A stretch of 64,000 nucleotides of DNA from Obrimoposthia wandeli (lineage: Eukaryota), in NCBI GenBank assembly GCA_977020255.1, contig CDROCS010001301.1, positions 124,001 through 188,000 on the forward strand, given 5' to 3'. This document shows positions 5,406 to 48,600 of the stretch, piece by piece. The notes beneath the pieces are model-generated. The model searched no databases, was not told the origin of the DNA, and saw only the letters and a list, made by a program, of their open reading frames with translations. How positions within the stretch are numbered: the first letter of the stretch is position 1; every line of letters starts with the position of its first letter. A program made the position numbers and the translations under genes.

Positions 5406-5881
5406 ATGAAACTCGTAAATATAAATTATAAAGGTAGAACAGAAGATGATGTTTCGTACTTACCATTCAATGAATGGAAGCCGAGACAATATGTGGAAAG
5501 GTTTGACAATTTTACAGTTGTTATTTTTCCTACAGGTTAGTTTTTTTATTTTCATATTGAATTCTTTTAGGAAATTGTCGTGTTATGGGATGCAAAATAC
5601 CAATGCTTGGGTTCAACTTACCATTTGGAATTCGAATCACTGCAATACAATCAATCACGATTTCGGCTAATCTTGGGAAACATATAAATCTTTTTAAAAC
5701 TGCAGAGAAAATGAAAGAAGAATGCATGTTTGAACTAGAAATATTTCCTGCTCTCAGTTATTTGAAGTTTAAACTGCTATGTGTAAATATATTTTCCAGT
5801 GGTAAAGTTATGATATTGGGATTGAAAAATTTTGATTATCCAGACATTGTTGATTTGATTTTAGAAAATATATCTTATTAA
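5406..5881 (+). CDS. TBP-like protein of Polinton A (2 exons: 5406-5535, 5571-5881; 146 aa)
   Basis: Exon 1 MKLVNINYKG...FTVVIFPT; 35-nt intron gttag...ttttag (5536-5570, phase 1); exon 2 GNCRVMGCK...IQSITISANLGKHINL...MFELEIFPAL...CVNIFSSGKVMILGLK matches TBP repeat 2 (IQNIV...YEPELFPGL...LLIFVSGKVVLTGAK). Spliced frame is open. Confidence 0.85.
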
Positions 5882-7064: not shown

Positions 7065-7394
7065 ATGAAGAAAATACAAAGAAGCATACCCTATTTTAAA
7101 GCTTTGGTCAAAGCCTCTTCTCATAAGAGAATGATTATTCTTAAAGCATTTCCATCTTTTGTTATAGATGATTTATTGGAAGTTTTGTATAATATAGTTT
7201 TGGGTAGAGTAAAAATTGGAAAACGAAAAAATATATTAAAGAAATATAGAAAAACTCTTCTAGATATTGCTAATGTAAAAAGTATAAAAAGGAAACGAAA
7301 TATTATTCTTAAACATAATGATGGTTTGATAGGGGATGTTATTCTAGTTGTTGCTTCAATTATCAGTAGTATTATAGCTGCGACACGTTCATAA
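7065..7394 (+). CDS. Conserved basic Polinton protein with C-terminal hydrophobic helix
   Basis: MKKIQRSIPYFKALVKAS...KRNIILKHNDGLIG...; homologous to 46846-47445 (ends [17 protein letters not shown]) and sits between ATPase and integrase in A, B and C. Confidence 0.7.
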   Translation: MKKIQRSIPYFKALVKASSHKRMIILKAFPSFVIDDLLEVLYNIVLGRVKIGKRKNILKKYRKTLLDIANVKSIKRKRNIILKHNDGLIGDVILVVASIISSIIAATRS

Positions 7395-7422
7395 GCAATT
7401 ATTTCTAAAATCAGCTAAAGAT

Positions 7423-7641
7423 ATGGGTGCTAGCCCTTCTTTACCTAAACTTAAATTTTCTTTCTATTCAAATTGTTGTAATGGAGAAGATATGGCTCAA
7501 TCCAAAAGATCCAATTGGCTAAACAGGAGTTTCAAAATTAGTAAAAAGAATAAAACAAAATTACAAGAAAACGCAGAAATGGCTGAGCGATCAGTTAGCC
7601 TACAGTCTGAACAAGCCGATGAGAAGAAGGTTTCCAACTAG
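7423..7641 (+). CDS. Putative small ORF overprinted on the integrase 5' end (MG start, CC motif)
   Basis: MGASPSLPKLKFSFYSNCCNGEDMAQS...; same frame offset and CCNG motif in B (ATG 19234) and C (47451-47681). Confidence 0.6.
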   Translation: MGASPSLPKLKFSFYSNCCNGEDMAQSKRSNWLNRSFKISKKNKTKLQENAEMAERSVSLQSEQADEKKVSN

Positions 7642-8509
7642 AGCTTACAAAACCAGCGGTCTTAATAATTTATGGCAAATGGATTTGATGGAGATGATCC
7701 CATATTCTTCCATTAATAAGGGATATCGATATATTTTAACATGTATTGATGTATTTAGCAGGTTTGCTCGTGCAATTCCAGTTAAAGCAAAGTCTTCAAT
7801 AGCTATGCTTGAAGCCATTAAAGAAATATTAAAAGAGGACATTCCACAAAATGTGCAAACTGATTTAGGAAAAGAATTTTATAATAAGCAAGTTCAATCA
7901 TTATTAAAACAAAATAATATAAATCATTACTCAGTGTTTTCACAATACAAAGCAGCAGTAGTAGAAAGATCTAATCGTACTCTAAGAGATCGAATAAAAA
8001 AGTATTTCACAAAAGAAGGAAATAAAAAATGGATCCAAGTTTTACCTAAAATAATACATGCTTATAATCACTCTGAACATAGAGGTCTCAAGGGAATGAG
8101 ACCTGTTGATGTTACTAATAAAAGCTCTATGGACATTTGGATGAAGAGGAATAAAAAAGAAAAAATTAAAAAAGCTAAATATAAGAAAAACGAATATGTT
8201 CGAATTTCGAAAATTAGCTCTATTCCATTTATTAAAAACTTTGATCAGAATTGGAGCGATGAAATATTTTGTATAAGTAAAATTGATAAAAAGAGTAATC
8301 CAATAATGTATACTATTAAAGATGCTGACAATAATATCGTTCACGGTAAATTTTACGAGCAAGAACTACAAGTAATATCAAATAAACCTAGCGTTTTCCG
8401 TATTCAAAAAATATTAAAATCTAAGGGTACAGGTAAACATAAACAATCATTTGTTAAATGGCATGGTTATTCTGACCCAACTTGGATATCAGCATCTAAT
8501 ATAATATGA
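7481..8509 (+). pseudogene. Polinton retroviral-like integrase with C-terminal chromodomain-like motif
   Basis: WQMDL, LTCIDVFSRF, VQTDLGKEF, AAVVERSNRTL (DDE core) and VKWHGY tail. ATG at 7481 is in frame with ORF 7619-8509 but has a premature TAA at 7520-7522 (TAC in B). Confidence 0.92.
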
Positions 8510-18248: not shown

Positions 18249-19176
18249 ATTATATTAGATGCTGATATCTAAGTTGGGTCTAAATAACCATGCCATTTAA
18301 TAAAGTATTGTTTAAGTTTACCAGTACCCTTAGATTTTAATATTTTTTGAATACGGAAAACGCTAGGTTTATTTGATATTACTTGCAGTTCTTGCTCGTA
18401 AAATTTACCCTAAACGATTTTATTGTCACTATCTTTAATAGTATACATTATTGGATTACTCTTTTGATCAATTTTACTTATACAAAATATTTCATCGCTC
18501 CAATTCTGATCAAAGTTTTTAATAAATGGAGTAGAACTAATTTTAGAAATTCAAACATATTCGCTTTTATTATATTTAGCTTTTTTAATATTTTCTTTTT
18601 TATTCATGTCTATCCAAATATCCATAGAGTTTTTATTAGTAACATCAACAAATCTCATTTTTTATTTTCTTCTTTTGTGAAATATTTTTTTATTCGATCT
18701 CTTAAAGTACGATTAAATCTTTCTACTACTGCTGCTTTGTACTGCTGCTTTTTATTTTGTTTAAATAATGATTGAACTTGCTTATTATAAAATTCTTTTC
18801 CAAAATTTGTTTTTTCATTTTGTGGAATGTCCTCTTTTAATATTTCTTTAATGGCTTCAAGCATAGCTATTGAAGACTTTGCTTTAACTGGAATTGCACG
18901 AGCAAACCTGCTAAATAAATCAATACATGTTAAAATATATCGATATCCCTTATTAATGGAAGAATATGGGATCATCTCCATCAAATCCATTTGCCATAAA
19001 TTATTAGAACCGTTGGTTTTGTAAGCTCTAGTTGGAAACATTCTTCTCATCGGCTTGTTCAGACTGTAGGCTATTCATTTCTGCGTTTTCTTGTAATTTT
19101 GTTTTGTTCTTTTTGCTAATTTTGAAACTCCTGTGTAACCAATTCGATTTTTTGGATTGAACCATATCTTCTCCAT
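18245..19176 (-). pseudogene. Polinton integrase
   Basis: ORF 18655-19050 ([25 protein letters not shown]) plus upstream and downstream fragments; internal deletions relative to A. Confidence 0.88.
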
Positions 19177-19263
19177 TACAACAATTTGAATATATAGAAA
19201 ATTTAAATTTAGGTTAAGAAGGGTTAGCACCCATATCTTTAGCTGATTTTTTAAATTAATTGT

Positions 19264-19591
19264 TTATGAACGTGTCGCAGCTATAATACTACTGATAATT
19301 GAAGCAACATTGGAATAAAAGCCCCTATGAAACCACCATTATGTTTAAGAATAATATTTCGTTTCCTTTTTTTACTTTTTACATTAGCAATATCTAGAAG
19401 ATATTTTCTATATTTCTTTAATATATTTTTCCGATTTCCAACTTTTACTCGACACAAACTATATTATACAAAACTTCCAATAAATCATCTACAACAAAAG
19501 ATGGAAATGCTTTAAGAATAATCATTCTCTTATGAGAAGAGGCTTTGACTAAAGCTTTAAAATAGGGTATGCTTCTTTGTATTTTCTTCAT
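19264..19591 (-). pseudogene. Conserved basic Polinton protein (copy of 7065-7394)
   Basis: Reverse strand begins MKKIQRSIPYFKALVK and contains KHNGGFIG; frameshifted. Confidence 0.7.
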
Positions 19592-22234: not shown

Positions 22235-22481
22235 GTTGACCAACACATCTAATGGGTTGTGACCGACCATATATGAAAGGGTCGGGGTCAGTTTTGACTT
22301 GAATGTTTGAAGGTATAATTAAGGTCTACTATGGTTGGCCATCACATCTAAAGGGTCATGTTGTCCATAAAGTGGTATACACTCCATCAAAGTACCTACT
22401 ATGTACATTAAGATTTCTTATTCTATGTTGACCTCCTTGGTGAAAAAGATTTTGAGTGATAAATATAACTGTTACTTCACG

Positions 22482-23218
22482 TCGTGTTGTACGGAAAGCA
22501 TAGAATTATTCATTTTTACAGCCAACAAAACGTTGTCAATAAGAATTAAAATATCATCCACTCGAGTATCATTTCTCTTTTTTACTTCAGAAGACTCGTA
22601 TATTATTTTCATTAATCCACGAGGAGATAATAAAGGATTTTGGTTTCTAAGTTTTTGTACACCATTTAAGTGTGCTCTACTTTTCAAATGTCTTTTCAAA
22701 AAATCAAGCTTCCATACATCATCATTACCTCTTTTTCCATATGAAAATTCTCCGTCAACCTGAGCTTCACAACAATAATAACATTTAATTCCTTTTCTTT
22801 CATCATATTCAAAGATTTCTTTTAATAGCACATCTATTTCTTCATGTGACTTGGGTGTCGCGGTTTTAACACTTACTTTTAGCCAATCTTCTTTGAATGT
22901 CGAAGCTGTTTTTCTACGTTTCTTATCGGCAGGCATATAATGAGTAAAGAATTTGAAAAAATAATTTTTTAGTAATGTTCATTATTTAAACAAAAATAAA
23001 ATCTAATAATATAATATAATTTTTTAATATAAATAGTAAACAAAATTATAATCTTTAATAAATTACCAATCATTTACATATTTTAAATCTCAAAACAAAA
23101 GAATGGTGTGCCTGGTACAAAAAGAATTTTAAGTGTGTGCGCTAAAATAAAAGACCGTGTGCGGCATCTTCTTTTCTCGTGTGCGCGCGCACAAGCGCAC
23201 AGCTTAGCTGGAACACTG
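22482..23218 (-). mobile_element. Truncated hAT transposon (5' part; TTF-type zinc-finger N-terminus)
   Basis: ORF 22472-22936 with F.EDW...IKCYYC...FSYG...KLDFLKRHLKSRAH; terminus CAGTGTTCC at 23218. Flank cttcacga (23219-23226) is repeated as cttcacg (22475-22481), consistent with an 8-bp TSD clipped by deletion. Confidence 0.7.
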
Positions 23219-33539: not shown

Positions 33540-34700
33540 TCATCGGGATATAATATTCCAAAGTTTCCACCGACGTGTGATAAGAATTTTACAGCGATTC
33601 GATACAAATACTGGTACAAATATCACATCCTCACGATGGTAAACATTTGTCAGCTGAGCGATTCTTTTGTCAATTGTTATGATGTTTGATCTATTTCTGG
33701 ATTCACTAAACCCGATAGAGCAGCGTTTAACCAATGATTTTGAAAATTTCAACTCCAACTTGAAAAAATCAATGCTTTTCCAAACATTTTCGTGCTTTCG
33801 AACCATCATTGATTTACACCGATTGTGCCAGCCTTCAACTGCGTTATTAGTTCTGACACTTCTGGTGAACATATTCCAGTTATTAATGAAGTCTGCTGGA
33901 AGCCACTGACGACGAAAATATCTTTCGAAAACGAAAAAGAAAGGATAATCCCGCTTAGCTGCTTCCATTAATTCCTCAAAATGCATTGTTATACAAGCAG
34001 GCTTGTCATATGCCATGGCAATAATTAATTTTCTGTAAGTACGGAACTTAATGTCCAATTTGTAGCAGTGAAACATTTTTTCTTTGCGTAAAAATTTCAT
34101 TATGCACTGCAAATAATGAAACAGACACCCGTCAATTTCAACTGAAGGAATTTCTTGAAGGCACGTACTAATCATCGCTTTTTCATAGTCTACCGAAAGC
34201 CGATTAGGATTAAAAATAAGACTGCTTTCAGCAGCTAGATCATGCAATGCCCTAATAATTTTGACATATGTGACGTTTGTTCTTGAGGTCATAAGTAAGA
34301 ACAAACACACAATTAATTTATTTTCTTTAATGATGTGAAAGGTGTAAAGCTGACTGAAGGGCCTTGGACATATCTCAAAAGTTCCGTCACAAAAAACTGT
34401 CTCTGCTTCACATAACAGTTTAATGTGATATGAACTGCCAAATCCCAATGTCCTACCTCCATTTTCCCTTTGATCCATGAACAAAAACGAACTTCTGTCA
34501 TCATGATAAAGATAGGCAAATGGAACTGTAAAAGAAGAATTGAATGGAATGTTTTTGTCGAAATTTTTCAATATTTCTGTAGAAGGTTCTTTCTAACGCT
34601 TCTCTTGACGGAAAATTATTTAAAATTTCCACGTCTTTATCGAAATATATTTCCTTAACAAATTTGGAAGCGCTTTCAGAACATTTTCAGAACTTTTAAG
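33540..34700 (-). mobile_element. Mutator-like (MULE) transposase gene
   Basis: FCDGTFEICPRPFSQLYTFH, VDYEKAM, GCLFHYLQC and RTNNAVEGWHNR motifs of MULE transposases. The 343-aa open ORF joins an upstream frame via a 1-nt shift near 34565. TIRs not located. Confidence 0.88.
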
Positions 34701-42600: not shown

Positions 42601-45600
42601 CATCAAAGTACCTACTTTGGACTGGTGAGCTAAATATATAATTTAGTTCTACAATATTATGTCTGAATGAATCGCATGTATGACAAAGAAATGATCATGT
42701 TCATGAGAATCTAGAAAGACATGTGGCAACGAGTCTCTGTATTATTTAAATGCGTTATTGTGCGGGATTATCAGATCACTTAATGAACTATTTATCATCA
42801 GTATGACATTATCTCGGTTAATTTCCCTTGATCAACAGCTTTAAAACGTTTCCCTAAAATAACTAAATCGCGCTTGCCATTACCGTAGAAAAATTCCTCG
42901 CCATTATTCCGCATCGTTCATTTTGTGATTTAACACACCAATTTACTTTTTTCACTCCAATATTATCGACAAATCAGTGCGAACCACTTCTCATCAGATC
43001 ACACGATTTAAACCGTGCTTCGTGCTTTATAGTCATTTTTACTTCAACAATTGGGCAACTTCTGATACATTAAATTTGATAATTCTGTTTCTTTCACGTT
43101 TGGAAATTATTTTGGTCCACCAGAAAATCTTTTGATACCAAACTTCGCAGAGTGCTACAGACAACTTCACGCAACTTGGAATTTTTCATTAAACAAAAAG
43201 CATAGCTGCCTTCCGGATTTCACTAAAATCGTTGTTTAGTGTGTCTACTTTTTAAAAATATGTTTTTCCTATTTTCATAATCAAAATTTCTAAAAGGTCG
43301 AATAAGTATGTTACAAATAACTAACTTGAATTTTACACAATACAAGCTATTTATTCCGCAGACTAATATTGTAGGCAATAATTGAAATGATAAAATTCCC
43401 ATGATACACTGACGAAATTCAGCTAAAATAGTTAATTGAAATGTTGAATAGAAAAAGTAGTGGTCAAATAATAATGTTACAGACCTGAAAGATTCTCAAA
43501 ATGTCTTCATGAGAATCCCTCTTATCTTCTAGCACACAAATGTACACACCAACCTCATGCACACAAGAAGTGTAAAGTGTCGGTTCTAAAACAATAGAAC
43601 ACAAAGCCCCCCCGAATTCGCTTAGTCATACAGATGTGCTTTGTTCCTTGTGCCTTGTTCGGGGGGGGGGGGCTTTGTTTTCTATATTTTTAGAACCGAC
43701 ACTTTACGTTTTGAAATTTGATTGGTCTTATGTGTCATTTACGATTATGTAGGTTAATATTCTGTAAACATTAAGTATATAGTTCTAAAATTCAAAAATT
43801 TAAAATTAAAAAATTAAATATGGAAATTAAAAAATTAAATATGGAAATTAAAAAATTAAATATTAATTTACAAATTTACAAATTAAAATTTTAAAAATAA
43901 AATTTTGAAATTAAACACAATTGACCGTCTAAAGTTTTTATTTGCAACTATTTAATTTACTTAGTACTGCGACCTCATTCCAGGAGTTAGACTGCCCCGC
44001 ATAACCGGACAGCTATCGCAGTTTTTATCTTAAGAAACGTTATTGTTTATAGTAGGAGTCTATGTTTATACATGATTATATAATGAAGAAAGCAAAGTAA
44101 CATAGATAAATATATATTAGCACAATTATAAGTGAACTTGTCCATCAGTAATTTTCCAGATTGGTTTATGAAGACTTGTACAGTTGATTTTGTATCCCTG
44201 TATTGAAATGACGATCATCCACTTGAGTCCAGTTCCTATATTGTCAACATTAAAGTCGTGATCTCGCTTGAAGAGATTAGGATCAGCTCGAATTATTATA
44301 TGATTCCCAACTATAATGTTGATATGCATCGACGCGAAAGTTGTGTTAAGATCATCAATATCTGACGGATTTAATCTATGTATCTTGAAATCGTATTTTG
44401 ACTTATTCAGAGCCACCGGAAACATGAATCCATATATGATTGGAGTCTTCAAAAAATTCATTTGCCAGTTATAAAACATAACCGGCTTGGTGTACTTCAA
44501 ATCGTTAGACTCAAATATTACACCTGATGGTCTATTGTTGATGAACGGTTTCTTATGTTTAGGTGTAGAAACTATATCATCAATAAAGAGATCCTCATTT
44601 GTTGCTTGCTTCTCAATCTTGATAGTCTTGGATTGTTTGTTGTTGCTTGTCATAGTTTGCTTCTTTGGTTTTGATATTAAAACTACATCATCATCGGTAT
44701 CCGCATCTGTGACTGTAAGCCTTGTTGGTGGCTTCTCGAACTTAAGAGATTTAGTTTGTTTAGAGTTCATATCAAAATAATGAATTCTATACCAAAAGTG
44801 GTAGCTTATATATATCATTATACTCGATTCTGATTGGTTAATCTTTAGCTTAAAAATTTTATATATAGATTGGGTTATTTCCATTAATTCAATCATGAAT
44901 CTTGCAAATATTAATTATAAAGGTAAAGTTAAAGGAAACATCAGTCAATTACCCTTCAAAGCCGGGAAACCATGTCAGTACGTGTACAGGTGTAAGGATT
45001 ATACCCTTATAATCTTCCGTTCAGGTATGTTTTTATGTTAGTTAGTTAGTTAATTATTATTATTATTAGGAGCATGCAGGATAATGGGTTGCAAGAAACC
45101 TATTACTACAACTATGCTCAAGTGTCCATTTAGAATAAAGATTGATCGTATTCAATCAGTAACGGTTACTGTCGATTTAGGTAAGAAGGTGAACCTATAC
45201 AAGTTGTCTCAAAAGCGTGGAGCTGCATGCATGTTCGAACCTGAATTGTTTCCTGCTTTGAGGTTTACAAAACACAATCCTCTGTGCGTCAACATATTTG
45301 CAAGCGGGAAAGTGGTCATACTCGGTCTCAAGGATTTGGATTATAACTTTGATGTGACTTTGATAATAACTGATATTTTACTTTTTATATAAACAATAAA
45401 TTTTAGTTGAATTTTTATTCTTACATGATTTGAAAATGCTAGTTGATTATATACTTCATTATACAACTGTTGATGATGTTTTAGTTAGACGAAAAGTAGA
45501 TTATTCTAGAATGAAAGTTTTACACTGGAAATATAGACGTGAAAGGGAAAGATTAAGATAATTAATTATAAATTTTAAAGGGAAACAATCTGTAAATGAT

Positions 45601-48600
45601 TTAGCTAAAGCCGGATTTTATAAACATGATGATGATTCAACCGATAAAGTAAAATGTATATACTGCCAAGGTGCGTTATCCGAATGGGAATGGTATCTTA
45701 AACCAATGAAGTAACATATGAAATTTTTTCCTACATGTCCATTTCTTTTAAAGTTAAATGTTTCAAATGTACCAATAATTGAAACTATGGACAAGAAAAT
45801 TGATTTTGATACATCACCATTGATTGGAAAAGTATATGTATCAGATATTGATATAAAATTACCTGATATATGCTATTCAAAATGTTTAGGACCCTATAAT
45901 GAGGCTAATGTTATTGAGAAAATCGAAACAGATTGTATAATTGAATATCCTTTGACTATAGAGAAATTCGATATGTTGATGGATACAAACCAAATCAGAT
46001 ATTTGAAAATGTTTTTCACAAAAGATTGTTTGCACCCATGTCTATAGAGATATCAAACGGAATAAGGATTTTGAAAAATTCATTCAAATTAATCGTTCAA
46101 ACATGATGTATATAACCTTTTCTGTGTCAATTTTTAATTCTCTGTTGTTGTATATATTAATAAAACGTATATAAACAATCGTTTCTTTTGATTTATTATT
46201 ATTGATGATGATAAAACTTAAAAATAACGCGGTTTACCAAATAGTAGGACCTAGTGGGAGTGGGAAAACACATTTTGTAACTAAATTACTTCAAAATAAA
46301 AACATGTTTAATCAAAAGTTTGGTAGAATATACTGGCATTACGGAGGTGTAGTGGAATCTGGTCTAACACGAACAGAATTAGGTAAATTGAAGGGTATTC
46401 ATTTTATTAATGATGTTGATAATAAATGGTCTGAGAGGTTAAATTCAGGAGATGTCATTGTAATTGATGACTTGTATGATGAAGCGAATAAAGAGTCGGG
46501 TTTTAATAACCTGTTTACCAAAATAGCTAGACATAGAAATGTTACAGTGATTTTTATCACTAAAAATCTCTTTCATCAAGGCGGTCAACACCGTACTCGG
46601 AATTTAAATGTACATTATCTAGTATTATTTAAAAATCCGCGAGTTCAAACGGTTATCGACTTTGTTGCCCGTCAAGCTTTCCCTTGCAATAAGCAATATT
46701 TGATTGACGCATTTCAAGATGCTACAACTAACCCTCATGGATACTTGTTTTTAGATTTTACACAGGAATGTCCAGACGATTTACGCGTGAGAACCGATAT
46801 TTTCAATAATGATTTTGTATATAAACAAAAGAAAAGCCTATCTACATGTTAATCATGTCATTTATGAAAGAAACAATGCCTAGTGGAGTTGGACCTAAAT
46901 GGAGACCGGGCGATAAATTACACGCTAATGATAACAAATTGATGCTAAAGAAGAATGCTCATATTAAAAATCTTATTAAATCAGTGCTTCAGCGTAAAGT
47001 AGTCGATGAATCATTAAAGAAATCGGTCAAGACAGTAAAGAGAAAACCTATAAAAAAGAAACCATTAAAGAAGAAGAAGAAACCTGTTAAGAAAACAGTT
47101 GGAAAGTCGGTTAAAAAGTCATTAAATATGTTATCAAAATCTATACTTCCCTACTTTCAGGCTTTAATCAAGGCTCCAAGAATATATAGATCACGTATTC
47201 TCAAGTCATTTCCACCCTTTGTTATTGATAAGTTGGTTGAAGTGTTGTTTAATATTACATAAGGTACTGTAAAAATCGGTAATCATAAACATAACCTTAG
47301 AAAACATCAAAAAGCTTTACTTGATTTAGTGAATACTAAAAGTAAAACTGGTAAACGTAGAGTAATTCTAAAACAAAAAGGTGGTTTTATCGGTGCATTA
47401 ATACCTATAATTGCTACTTTGATTGCAAAATTGATAAACCCATAAACAAAATAGGTAATAACATACCCAACATCGATTTTAAATTCACTTGTTGTAATGG
47501 AAACGATATGGTACGATCCCGAAAACTCAGCTGGGTACAGCGGCATTGGCAAACTATCATTAAAAAGTCAATCGAGTCAAAAGAAAACTCAGAAATGGCT
47601 GAGCAATCAGCTAGCATACAGTCTAAACAAGCCAATGAAGCGGAAGTTCCCGACTCGAGCATACAGAACAAGCGGTCCTAACGATTTATGGCAGGCCGAT
47701 TTGATGGAAATTATACCATATGCAAGTATCAATGATGGTAACGAGTATATTTTAACATGTATTGACGTGTTTACAAGGTATGCGCGTGCATTACCTGTAA
47801 AATCTAAATCAGGTAAGGATATAGAGGCTGCTCTAAGTATAATGATTGATAAAACTGTCCCCATACATGTGCAAACCGATAAGGGTAAAGAGTTTAACAA
47901 CAAAAATGTAGGTAGTTTATTTAAAAAATAAAATATTGTACATTACTCTGTAGTTTCACAATTCAAAGCTGCAGCAGTTGAAAGGTTTAATAGAACATTG
48001 AGAGATCGATTAAAAAGACATTTTATTGCACAAGGTAATAAAAGATGGGTTGAAGTTTTACCAAAAGTAATGACTTCATACAATCACAGTAAGCATAGAG
48101 GTTTAGACGGATTGAGACCTGTCGATATTAATGATAAAAATGCAATGGAAATTTGGCTGAGTCGTAATCAAGTCGATAAAGTTAATAAACCCAAACATAA
48201 GACTGGTGATTATGTTCGGATATCAAAGTTTAGTGGTAGCCCCTTTATTAAAAACTTTGATCAGAATTGGAGTGATGAGGTGTTTAGGATAGAGAAAATA
48301 GACAAACGTGCAAATCCTGTAATGTACTCTATAGTTGATGATGACTGTAATGTAATAACAAGGAAATTGTATGAACCTGAATTACAAGTAATTGATAAAC
48401 CTACACTTTTCCGTATCCAAGAAGTCGTACAATCTAAAGGCCGCGGTAAGAATAAACAATATCTCGTAAAGTGGCATGGATATTCTGAATCAACATGGAT
48501 CAAAGCAAGCCAGATAGAGACTTCTATATGATTTTACCGAGTAATAGTTATCCGAAAACTCAACCTAATAATATGGCTTCATTATTCACTGTAGATTGGG

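Follow-up and report, generated by a model that had tools for sequence, protein, structure and literature searches.

A clade of Maverick/adintovirus-type elements carries a small gene, here called ORF X, that starts just upstream of the integrase gene and runs into it in the -1 frame. Throughout the clade, selection at the protein level acts on its reading frame and its Met-Gly/Cys core, and we regard it as close to certain that ORF X is a real protein-coding gene of these elements. Our preferred reading, to which we give a probability of about 0.5, is that it encodes a predicted N-myristoylated, S-acylated, membrane-anchored adaptor acting in particle assembly or exit. ORF X offers a direct handle on the question of whether animal Mavericks exit cells as particles, and how: it is one small protein, encoded in the virion block and bearing signals for lipid anchoring. 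In PMC8502044 virions are inferred from gene content. The analysis also yields a word that is a candidate promoter throughout the block and a likely explanation of low integrase, and describes a gene whose tail reaches far into its neighbour in one clade but scarcely does so in the sister clade.

The window is a stretch of 64,000 nucleotides from Obrimoposthia wandeli (contig CDROCS010001301.1), in which elements were mapped from intact ORFs and from other copies. Its features are:

Element A, about 5.5-10.6 kb, forward strand: decayed Maverick/adintovirus-type element
Element B, in the window, reverse strand: decayed Maverick/adintovirus-type element
Element C, about 45-51 kb, forward strand: decayed Maverick/adintovirus-type element of a divergent family
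7065..7394, forward strand: upstream basic gene of 109 aa, presumably pX-like, with a C-terminal GG-hydrophobic motif and no Pfam hit
7391..7396, forward strand: hexamer site of copy A, 32 nt 5' of the ORF X ATG and one base off ATAAAC, which 29/30 family-A copies match
7423..7641, forward strand: ORF X of copy A, 72 aa, with ATG at 7423, a TAG ending at 7641 and a Met-Gly start, in the -1 frame
7423..7479, forward strand: conserved non-overlapping core of ORF X in copy A, comprising MGASPS (predicted myristoylation signal), an alternating hydrophobic strand and CC
7474..7479, forward strand: di-cysteine CC of copy A, a predicted S-acylation site just 5' of the integrase ATG
7481..8509, forward strand: integrase of copy A (rve and chromodomain), broken in this copy by a stop at codon 14
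19028..19234, reverse strand: ORF X of copy B, with ATG at 19234, a premature stop at codon 7 and the rest open to 19028
47451..47681, forward strand: ORF X of copy C, 76 codons, with ATA as first codon in the window copy

Mavericks/Polintons are characterised by an rve integrase with chromodomain, a protein-primed PolB, an ATPase, an adenovirus-like protease, a double jelly-roll capsid with penton, and terminal inverted repeats with a target-site duplication. The window ORFs of the three elements together comprise an rve integrase with chromodomain, an A32-type ATPase and a TBP-like gene. Among integrase profiles, PF00665 scored above cut-off, and PF00385 at cut-off in copy C and below it in copy A; the Pfam scan of the intact window ORFs also placed the Pox_A32 packaging ATPase above cut-off. 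Peptidase_C5 was weak in the window and above cut-off in locus L090, whose protease matches adenain structures. The capsid is represented by a single weak Capsid_N match in the window (E 0.0055), with none in further profile scans. A type B polymerase (PF03175, E 8.5e-22) lies beside the family-A copy L142 on the opposite strand, the window holding a remnant; the family-C candidate at L144:4199-7042 gave no PF03175 match. In long loci the genes follow each other on one strand in the order ATPase, pX-like gene, ORF X, integrase and then the capsid-block genes. The penton, hexon, pX-like and protein-VI-like labels, including that of the 109-aa gene, are tentative assignments by size, by gene order and by the gene classes in PMC8502044, and not by a profile match. 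Adintovirus criteria, in the sections of PMC8502044 and PMC11071296 that set them out, are an OTU-like domain on PolB and reciprocal BLASTp of the hexon with reference viruses.

Several other genes accompany these elements. TBP-like genes occupy 5585-5881 and 45084-45392 of the window, upstream of the ATPase (PF00352 above cut-off). A family-C copy has a BIR and RING (IAP-like) gene (L143:5389-6288) after the TBP-like gene and before the ATPase, and past the PolB of the family-A copy lies an RVT_1 reverse transcriptase (L142:5628-6659), which may be an insertion or cargo. On the reverse strand of the window we found a MULE transposase fragment (33540-34478) and, within the ATPase region of copy B, an ORF of the C17orf113-type zinc finger kind (22472-22936).

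A reading of the sequence alone had proposed an alternative-frame ORF over the integrase 5' end in all three elements, with a cysteine pair upstream of the integrase ATG. The ORF is real, with 72 aa in copy A, 76 codons in copy C and a break at codon 7 in copy B, and in copy A the CC (7474-7479) does precede the integrase ATG at 7481; from the ORF X ATG to this ATG it is 58 nt, and 53 codons overlap. The integrase ATG is at 19176 in copy B, with ATAAAC at 19267, and at 47497 in copy C, with ATAAAC at 47434 and 47442 and 61 overlapping codons in the family. The check proposed for the start of ORF X in family C returned ATG-Gly in 28/30 copies. Frequent stops or missing ATG-Gly, named beforehand as signs against a gene, were not seen: ORF X is full length with ATG-Gly in 29 and truncated in one of the best 30 of 1265 family-A candidates, and full length in 25, without ATG in two and truncated in three of the best 30 of 1761 family-C candidates, these top-scoring sets being biased toward well-kept copies among first-look candidates in the 1.35 Gb host genome. 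As the best copies are 97-98% alike, alone they prove only that active elements had ORF X. A second form of the gene, the long type described below, had no match in the host genome with the one query used.

More distant comparisons came from metagenomes. An alignment of 60 integrases led to 80 metagenome loci, 11 of them without enough upstream DNA. At integrase identities of at least 49%, ORF X is found in the -1 frame at 40/41 loci with enough upstream DNA, many of the loci being near-duplicates, and all 40 have a Met-Gly start, CC or CxC, and a frame reaching the integrase start. At identities of 45% or below, ORF X is found at 1/28 loci. A similar ORF in the +1 or integrase frame was found at none of the metagenome loci with upstream DNA. 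In the alignment of 29 non-redundant ORF X sequences, Met1, Gly2 and one Cys are invariant. The short type (n = 14, including A and C) has Met-Gly, Pro, an alternating hydrophobic strand, CC and a long overlap with the integrase of 38-129 codons; the long type (n = 15) has Met-Gly-Asn, a hydrophobic N-terminus, a linker and an I-N-C-A-C-F-like motif, and ends near the integrase start, with an overlap of 5-50 codons. Between Met and the Cys motif there are 13 to 46 codons, a variable distance over which the frame is kept.

In an integrase tree of 39 rows, which left out L109 (short) as well as redundant and broken loci and was midpoint-rooted so that the direction of change is not given, the short and long types are sister groups (support 91/87 and 96/92) within a 100/99 clade of 26 rows, 25 of them with ORF X. 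The remaining row, L097, lies inside the clade and lacks the gene, a point against the pattern. Its integrase follows directly after the pX-like gene (L097:1165-1545), ORF X and the hexamer being both absent. A Met-Gly, CC protein resembling ORF X precedes an integrase of 34% identity outside the clade (L120:489-749), with a weak profile score and a long branch; this represents either wider spread or convergence. At L086:3760-4236 a duplicated segment extends both frames, giving an ORF X of 158 aa whose overlap is still open.

The core of ORF X evolves as protein-coding sequence. Pairwise identity of the core block at the first, second and third codon positions of the ORF X frame is 0.71/0.70/0.49 in 14 short-type and 0.71/0.80/0.39 in 11 long-type sequences, and the low conservation of third positions points to selection on the protein. 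The core of the L091/L095 pair shows 16 synonymous vs 7 non-synonymous codon differences; seven close pairs contain no synonymous change among their 131 core codons, a number too small for a judgement. Gly2 is encoded by GGT, GGA, GGC and GGG (10, 10, 4 and 1 of 25 loci). A splice donor, or a Kozak context only, was considered as the cause of the ATGG and dropped because of this use of four Gly codons.

The overlap is kept open by codon choice in the integrase. A stop in the -1 frame arises where an integrase codon ending in T stands before AA, AG or GA. Such stop-making T-endings account for 14/203 cases in the first 40 integrase codons of the short type vs 563/1017 downstream, and T-endings before other codons in those first 40 codons, the control, for 102/314 (P = 7e-13). 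The effect is weak in the long type (34/130 vs 121/320, P = 0.02). Synonymous codon permutation inside the region gave 4 stops observed vs 20.9 expected over 14 relatives (P = 1.7e-4). Per-locus synonymous shuffles show the overlap to be open beyond chance (P = 0.0005 in family A, 0.001 in family C), with P <= 0.015 in 13/14 short-type and P < 0.05 in 2/15 long-type loci. The loci share ancestry and are less independent than these P values imply, but their synonymous sites are almost saturated.

The sequence of the tail behaves differently from its openness. Excess synonymous conservation in the overlap, which the sequence-only reading expected, failed to appear: synonymous sites of the overlap are no more conserved than those downstream (0.426 observed vs 0.476 expected), nor do seven close pairs show an excess (10/430 vs 40/1781), in a test whose power is limited by near-saturation of distant pairs and by the few changes in close ones. 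An overlap that is open, variable in length and free of such conservation indicates a tail that carries little specific sequence, its residues following the integrase. The conserved business of ORF X lies in its first 15-50 residues, the N-terminal core. Compared with what is expected of overprinted genes, the alternative frame of the short type is open beyond the expectation from the ancestral gene, and synonymous variation is not reduced. The proposed conserved overprinted ORF survives in part: the gene is conserved, with invariant Met-Gly and Cys, but the residues encoded in the overlap show no specific conservation, and in the sister group ORF X stops close to where the integrase begins.

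One could suppose that ORF X is no gene, only a by-product of integrase coding and conserved DNA signals, and the long-type motif does partly coincide with the hexamer discussed below. Frame-specific presence, third-position variation, stop avoidance limited to stop-making codon pairs, and a Met-Cys spacing that changes without frame loss all speak against this, and we consider it extremely improbable.

Known N-myristoylated proteins have Gly2 after the first Met and favour Ser or Thr at position 6, and S-acylated proteins carry a thioester-linked fatty acid on cysteines near a membrane anchor. ORF X, with its invariant Gly2, has the N-myristoylation signal at the level of the motif: Ser6 is present in 26/38 short-type sequences and Ser or Thr at this position in 11/31 long-type ones. 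A second Cys within residues 2-12 occurs in 20/31 long-type vs 2/38 short-type sequences. There is no transmembrane stretch, no hydrophobic 19-mer exceeding 0.46. The MGxxxS/T myristoylation motif and two-signal membrane anchoring are as in the relevant parts of PMC9205190. On these motifs the best reading is that ORF X would be a doubly acylated peripheral membrane protein, and we think it likely that it is lipid-anchored. The acidic stretch after the Cys motif is modest, with a median of 4 (short type) or 6 (long type) Asp/Glu per 20 residues, and is partly the -1 reading of a Lys-rich integrase leader.

AlphaFold2 models are of low confidence (pLDDT 67 and 65, pTM 0.30 and 0.28). At that confidence the short type shows one long tail helix and no N-terminal helix, and the long type an N-terminal helix at residues 4-13 and a hairpin around C-A-C; the hydrophobic moment is 0.38 in the long vs 0.23 in the short type. 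Pfam searches with 29 and 31 members gave scattered weak matches and no UL11 family, and neither the PDB by sequence nor a viral fold search with the long-type model returned anything at E <= 0.001. Searched with a profile, a set of 1.84 billion proteins yielded 65 matches at E <= 0.001, about a dozen of them query rows or near-copies; of 64 fetched, 55 begin with Met-Gly and 63 have CC or CxC, motifs that the profile itself favours. Ten profile matches that were looked up have no informative name. A word-based homologue search found nothing with ORF X alone and, with the alignment, 10 matches that are unnamed or called 'hypothetical protein'. No relatives were found in a viral contig collection, nor any usable match in the ESM Atlas with two ORF X members.

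A further candidate role was that of a pVIc-type protease cofactor, for which Cys104 is the partner cysteine on the adenovirus protease. It was dropped, since the L090 protease has a residue other than Cys opposite the Cys of adenain RCLSL (one sequence, weak alignment).

Expression signals place ORF X with its neighbours. ATAAAC is the top upstream hexamer, found before 32/43 genes other than ORF X at ten loci (L064, L066, L072, L080, L084, L086, L088, L090, L143 and L144), against a background of 11%. In short-type elements ATAAAC, often as TATAAACA, mostly stands 30-45 nt 5' of the ATG. In the short type 14/14 loci have it before ORF X, the median distance being 32 nt (random ATGs: 14.5%), and it lies within 70 nt upstream of ORF X in 21/28 loci overall; no ATAAAC stands between the ORF X and integrase ATGs of short-type loci. 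Because the hexamer lies inside the preceding CDS at the major capsid gene and several others, a promoter fits better than a polyadenylation signal, although in some short-type loci its TAA doubles as the stop codon of the upstream gene, which counts against this. We infer that ATAAAC is a TATA-like promoter and a candidate word for the virion block of this clade; the TBP-like proteins could be its readers.

With the hexamer before ORF X and none before the integrase AUG, the integrase is likely a second cistron. In the short type one mRNA would thus carry ORF X first and give integrase via leaky scanning, which we judge rather probable. The leaky scanning envisaged by the sequence-only reading agrees with the arrangement, no ATG occurring between the two starts in 14/14 short-type loci, and 18/25 loci have a purine at -3 of the ORF X ATG. 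In several long-type loci intervening ATGs would block simple leaky scanning. At the assigned integrase ATG of this type, Ile-Asn codons of the ORF X core spell ATAAAC 34-61 nt upstream in 6/11 loci, so conservation of the motif may be partly at the DNA level; the long-type integrase may have its own transcript start.

From this arrangement it might be argued that ORF X serves chiefly as a translational brake: an upstream ORF, overlapping the integrase gene, that keeps integrase low, with the peptide secondary. ORF X always ends downstream of the integrase-frame ATG, and the absence of intervening ATGs in the short type, the purines at -3 and a tail that is open but not conserved are all consistent with such a brake. 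A brake would not require a Gly2 that is invariant through four codons, or invariant cysteines, repression would not call for 38-129 open codons, and the long type keeps the core though its integrase may have its own promoter-like hexamer. We hold this to be quite unlikely as the main function.

The reading we prefer is that of an anchored adaptor. The AUG of ORF X, first on the shared mRNA of the short type, would hold integrase synthesis low; myristate on Gly2 and palmitate on the cysteines would hold the protein at the cytosolic face of membranes, and other proteins, viral or of the host, would be bound by its flexible charged tail. The position in the virion block and a hexamer common with the capsid and packaging genes suggest that ORF X belongs to the virion programme, and hence a role in assembly or exit. 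A fuller version is speculative: a matrix-like, doubly acylated adaptor might recruit the capsids of Mavericks to membranes, from which they would exit without lysis or in a quasi-enveloped form, its start codon governing integrase output, so that the cassette would couple release to integration rate, one lineage having lengthened the protein by overprinting integrase.

ORF X could instead be non-structural and work like geminivirus C4/AC4, lipid-anchored at the plasma membrane and altering host signalling or defence there. It has the same design as C4: small, with a myristoylation motif, an overlap with a replication or integration gene and a poorly conserved tail. ORF X is absent in the L097 lineage, as accessory genes may be, and a BIR-RING gene is also present in family C. 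ORF X nevertheless stands in the middle of the virion block under the same upstream hexamer as capsid and packaging genes, and is present in 40/41 loci of the clade. Nothing in these data separates assembly or exit from host modulation, which we consider the less likely of the two.

The myristoylated N-terminus of picornavirus VP4 and polyomavirus VP2 helps to breach membranes on entry, and ORF X might be an internal virion protein of this kind. The predicted N-terminal helix of the long type (residues 4-13, low confidence), its higher hydrophobic moment and the myristoylation signals discussed for the Macc class in part of PMC11071296 would suit an entry role. The short type, including the window copies, has no such helix, and no conserved GG site is visible in the ORF X alignment of 29 sequences. 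The gene before the major capsid gene, presumably protein-VI-like, already has a GG-containing, hydrophobic-basic N-terminus. An entry function thus seems unlikely to us, and assembly or exit remains our preferred role.

Proteins of unrelated viruses show how such a design can work. Parts of PMC9205190 describe UL11, which acts in envelopment and egress, as small, with an N-terminal MGxxxS/T signal, palmitoylated cysteines, an acidic cluster and a partial overlap with a neighbour gene. The resemblance is one of design only, with no sequence homology by Pfam and PDB: ORF X has its cysteines at a distance of 13-46 residues from the start, behind a hydrophobic strand, its acidic stretch is weak in the window copy, and its carrier is an integrating element without a known envelope. 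Hepatitis E virus ORF3, from the pertinent parts of PMC8469867, is likewise a small overlapping ORF with palmitoylated cysteines, expressed by leaky scanning with a second gene from one mRNA and required for egress; it differs in belonging to an RNA virus and in overlapping the capsid gene rather than an integrase, with no Met-Gly signal described there and no homology. Geminivirus AC4/C4, in the portion of PMC6669703 that treats it, has about 85 aa, overlaps the enzyme gene Rep and needs its N-myristoylation motif for function, but is a silencing suppressor and pathogenicity factor of a plant ssDNA virus, without homology to ORF X. Unlike AC4/C4, ORF X stands among virion genes and includes a core of its own that lies clear of the overlap.

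Within adintoviruses and Mavericks, accessory genes named GasderminX, Cupiennin, Adintoc and Macc, described in parts of PMC8502044 and PMC11071296, belong to elements of this kind and to the gene block in which ORF X lies, and Macc proteins have been proposed in PMC11071296 to be membrane-active. ORF X is separate from all four. No Adinto-named protein with the ORF X core motifs was found in the searched part of supplement 2 of PMC11071296, and the main text of PMC8502044 contains neither 'overprint' nor 'myrist'. ORF X thus appears to be unannotated, a gene whose design is known from the unrelated UL11, HEV ORF3 and geminivirus C4, homologous to none found. A description of it was not found in the open papers searched; a name may exist in RepBase, GenBank adintovirus records or subscription papers, PW and PZ being candidate labels.

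Among the matches listed from the PMC11071296 supplement, in the part searched, one 'Integrase' entry starts with Met-Gly and a Cys-rich stretch like the -1 frame. This suggests that ORF X was absorbed into the entry through a frameshift in the contig and went unrecognised. A programmed +1 frameshift yielding a myristoylated ORF X-integrase fusion was given low odds, as intact loci have an integrase-frame ATG after the Cys motif; by eye there is no common shift site. The searched part of supplement 2 of the same paper also contains an adomavirus 'hypothetical protein' just before Cah, with Met-Gly and three nearby cysteines, that follows the same design.
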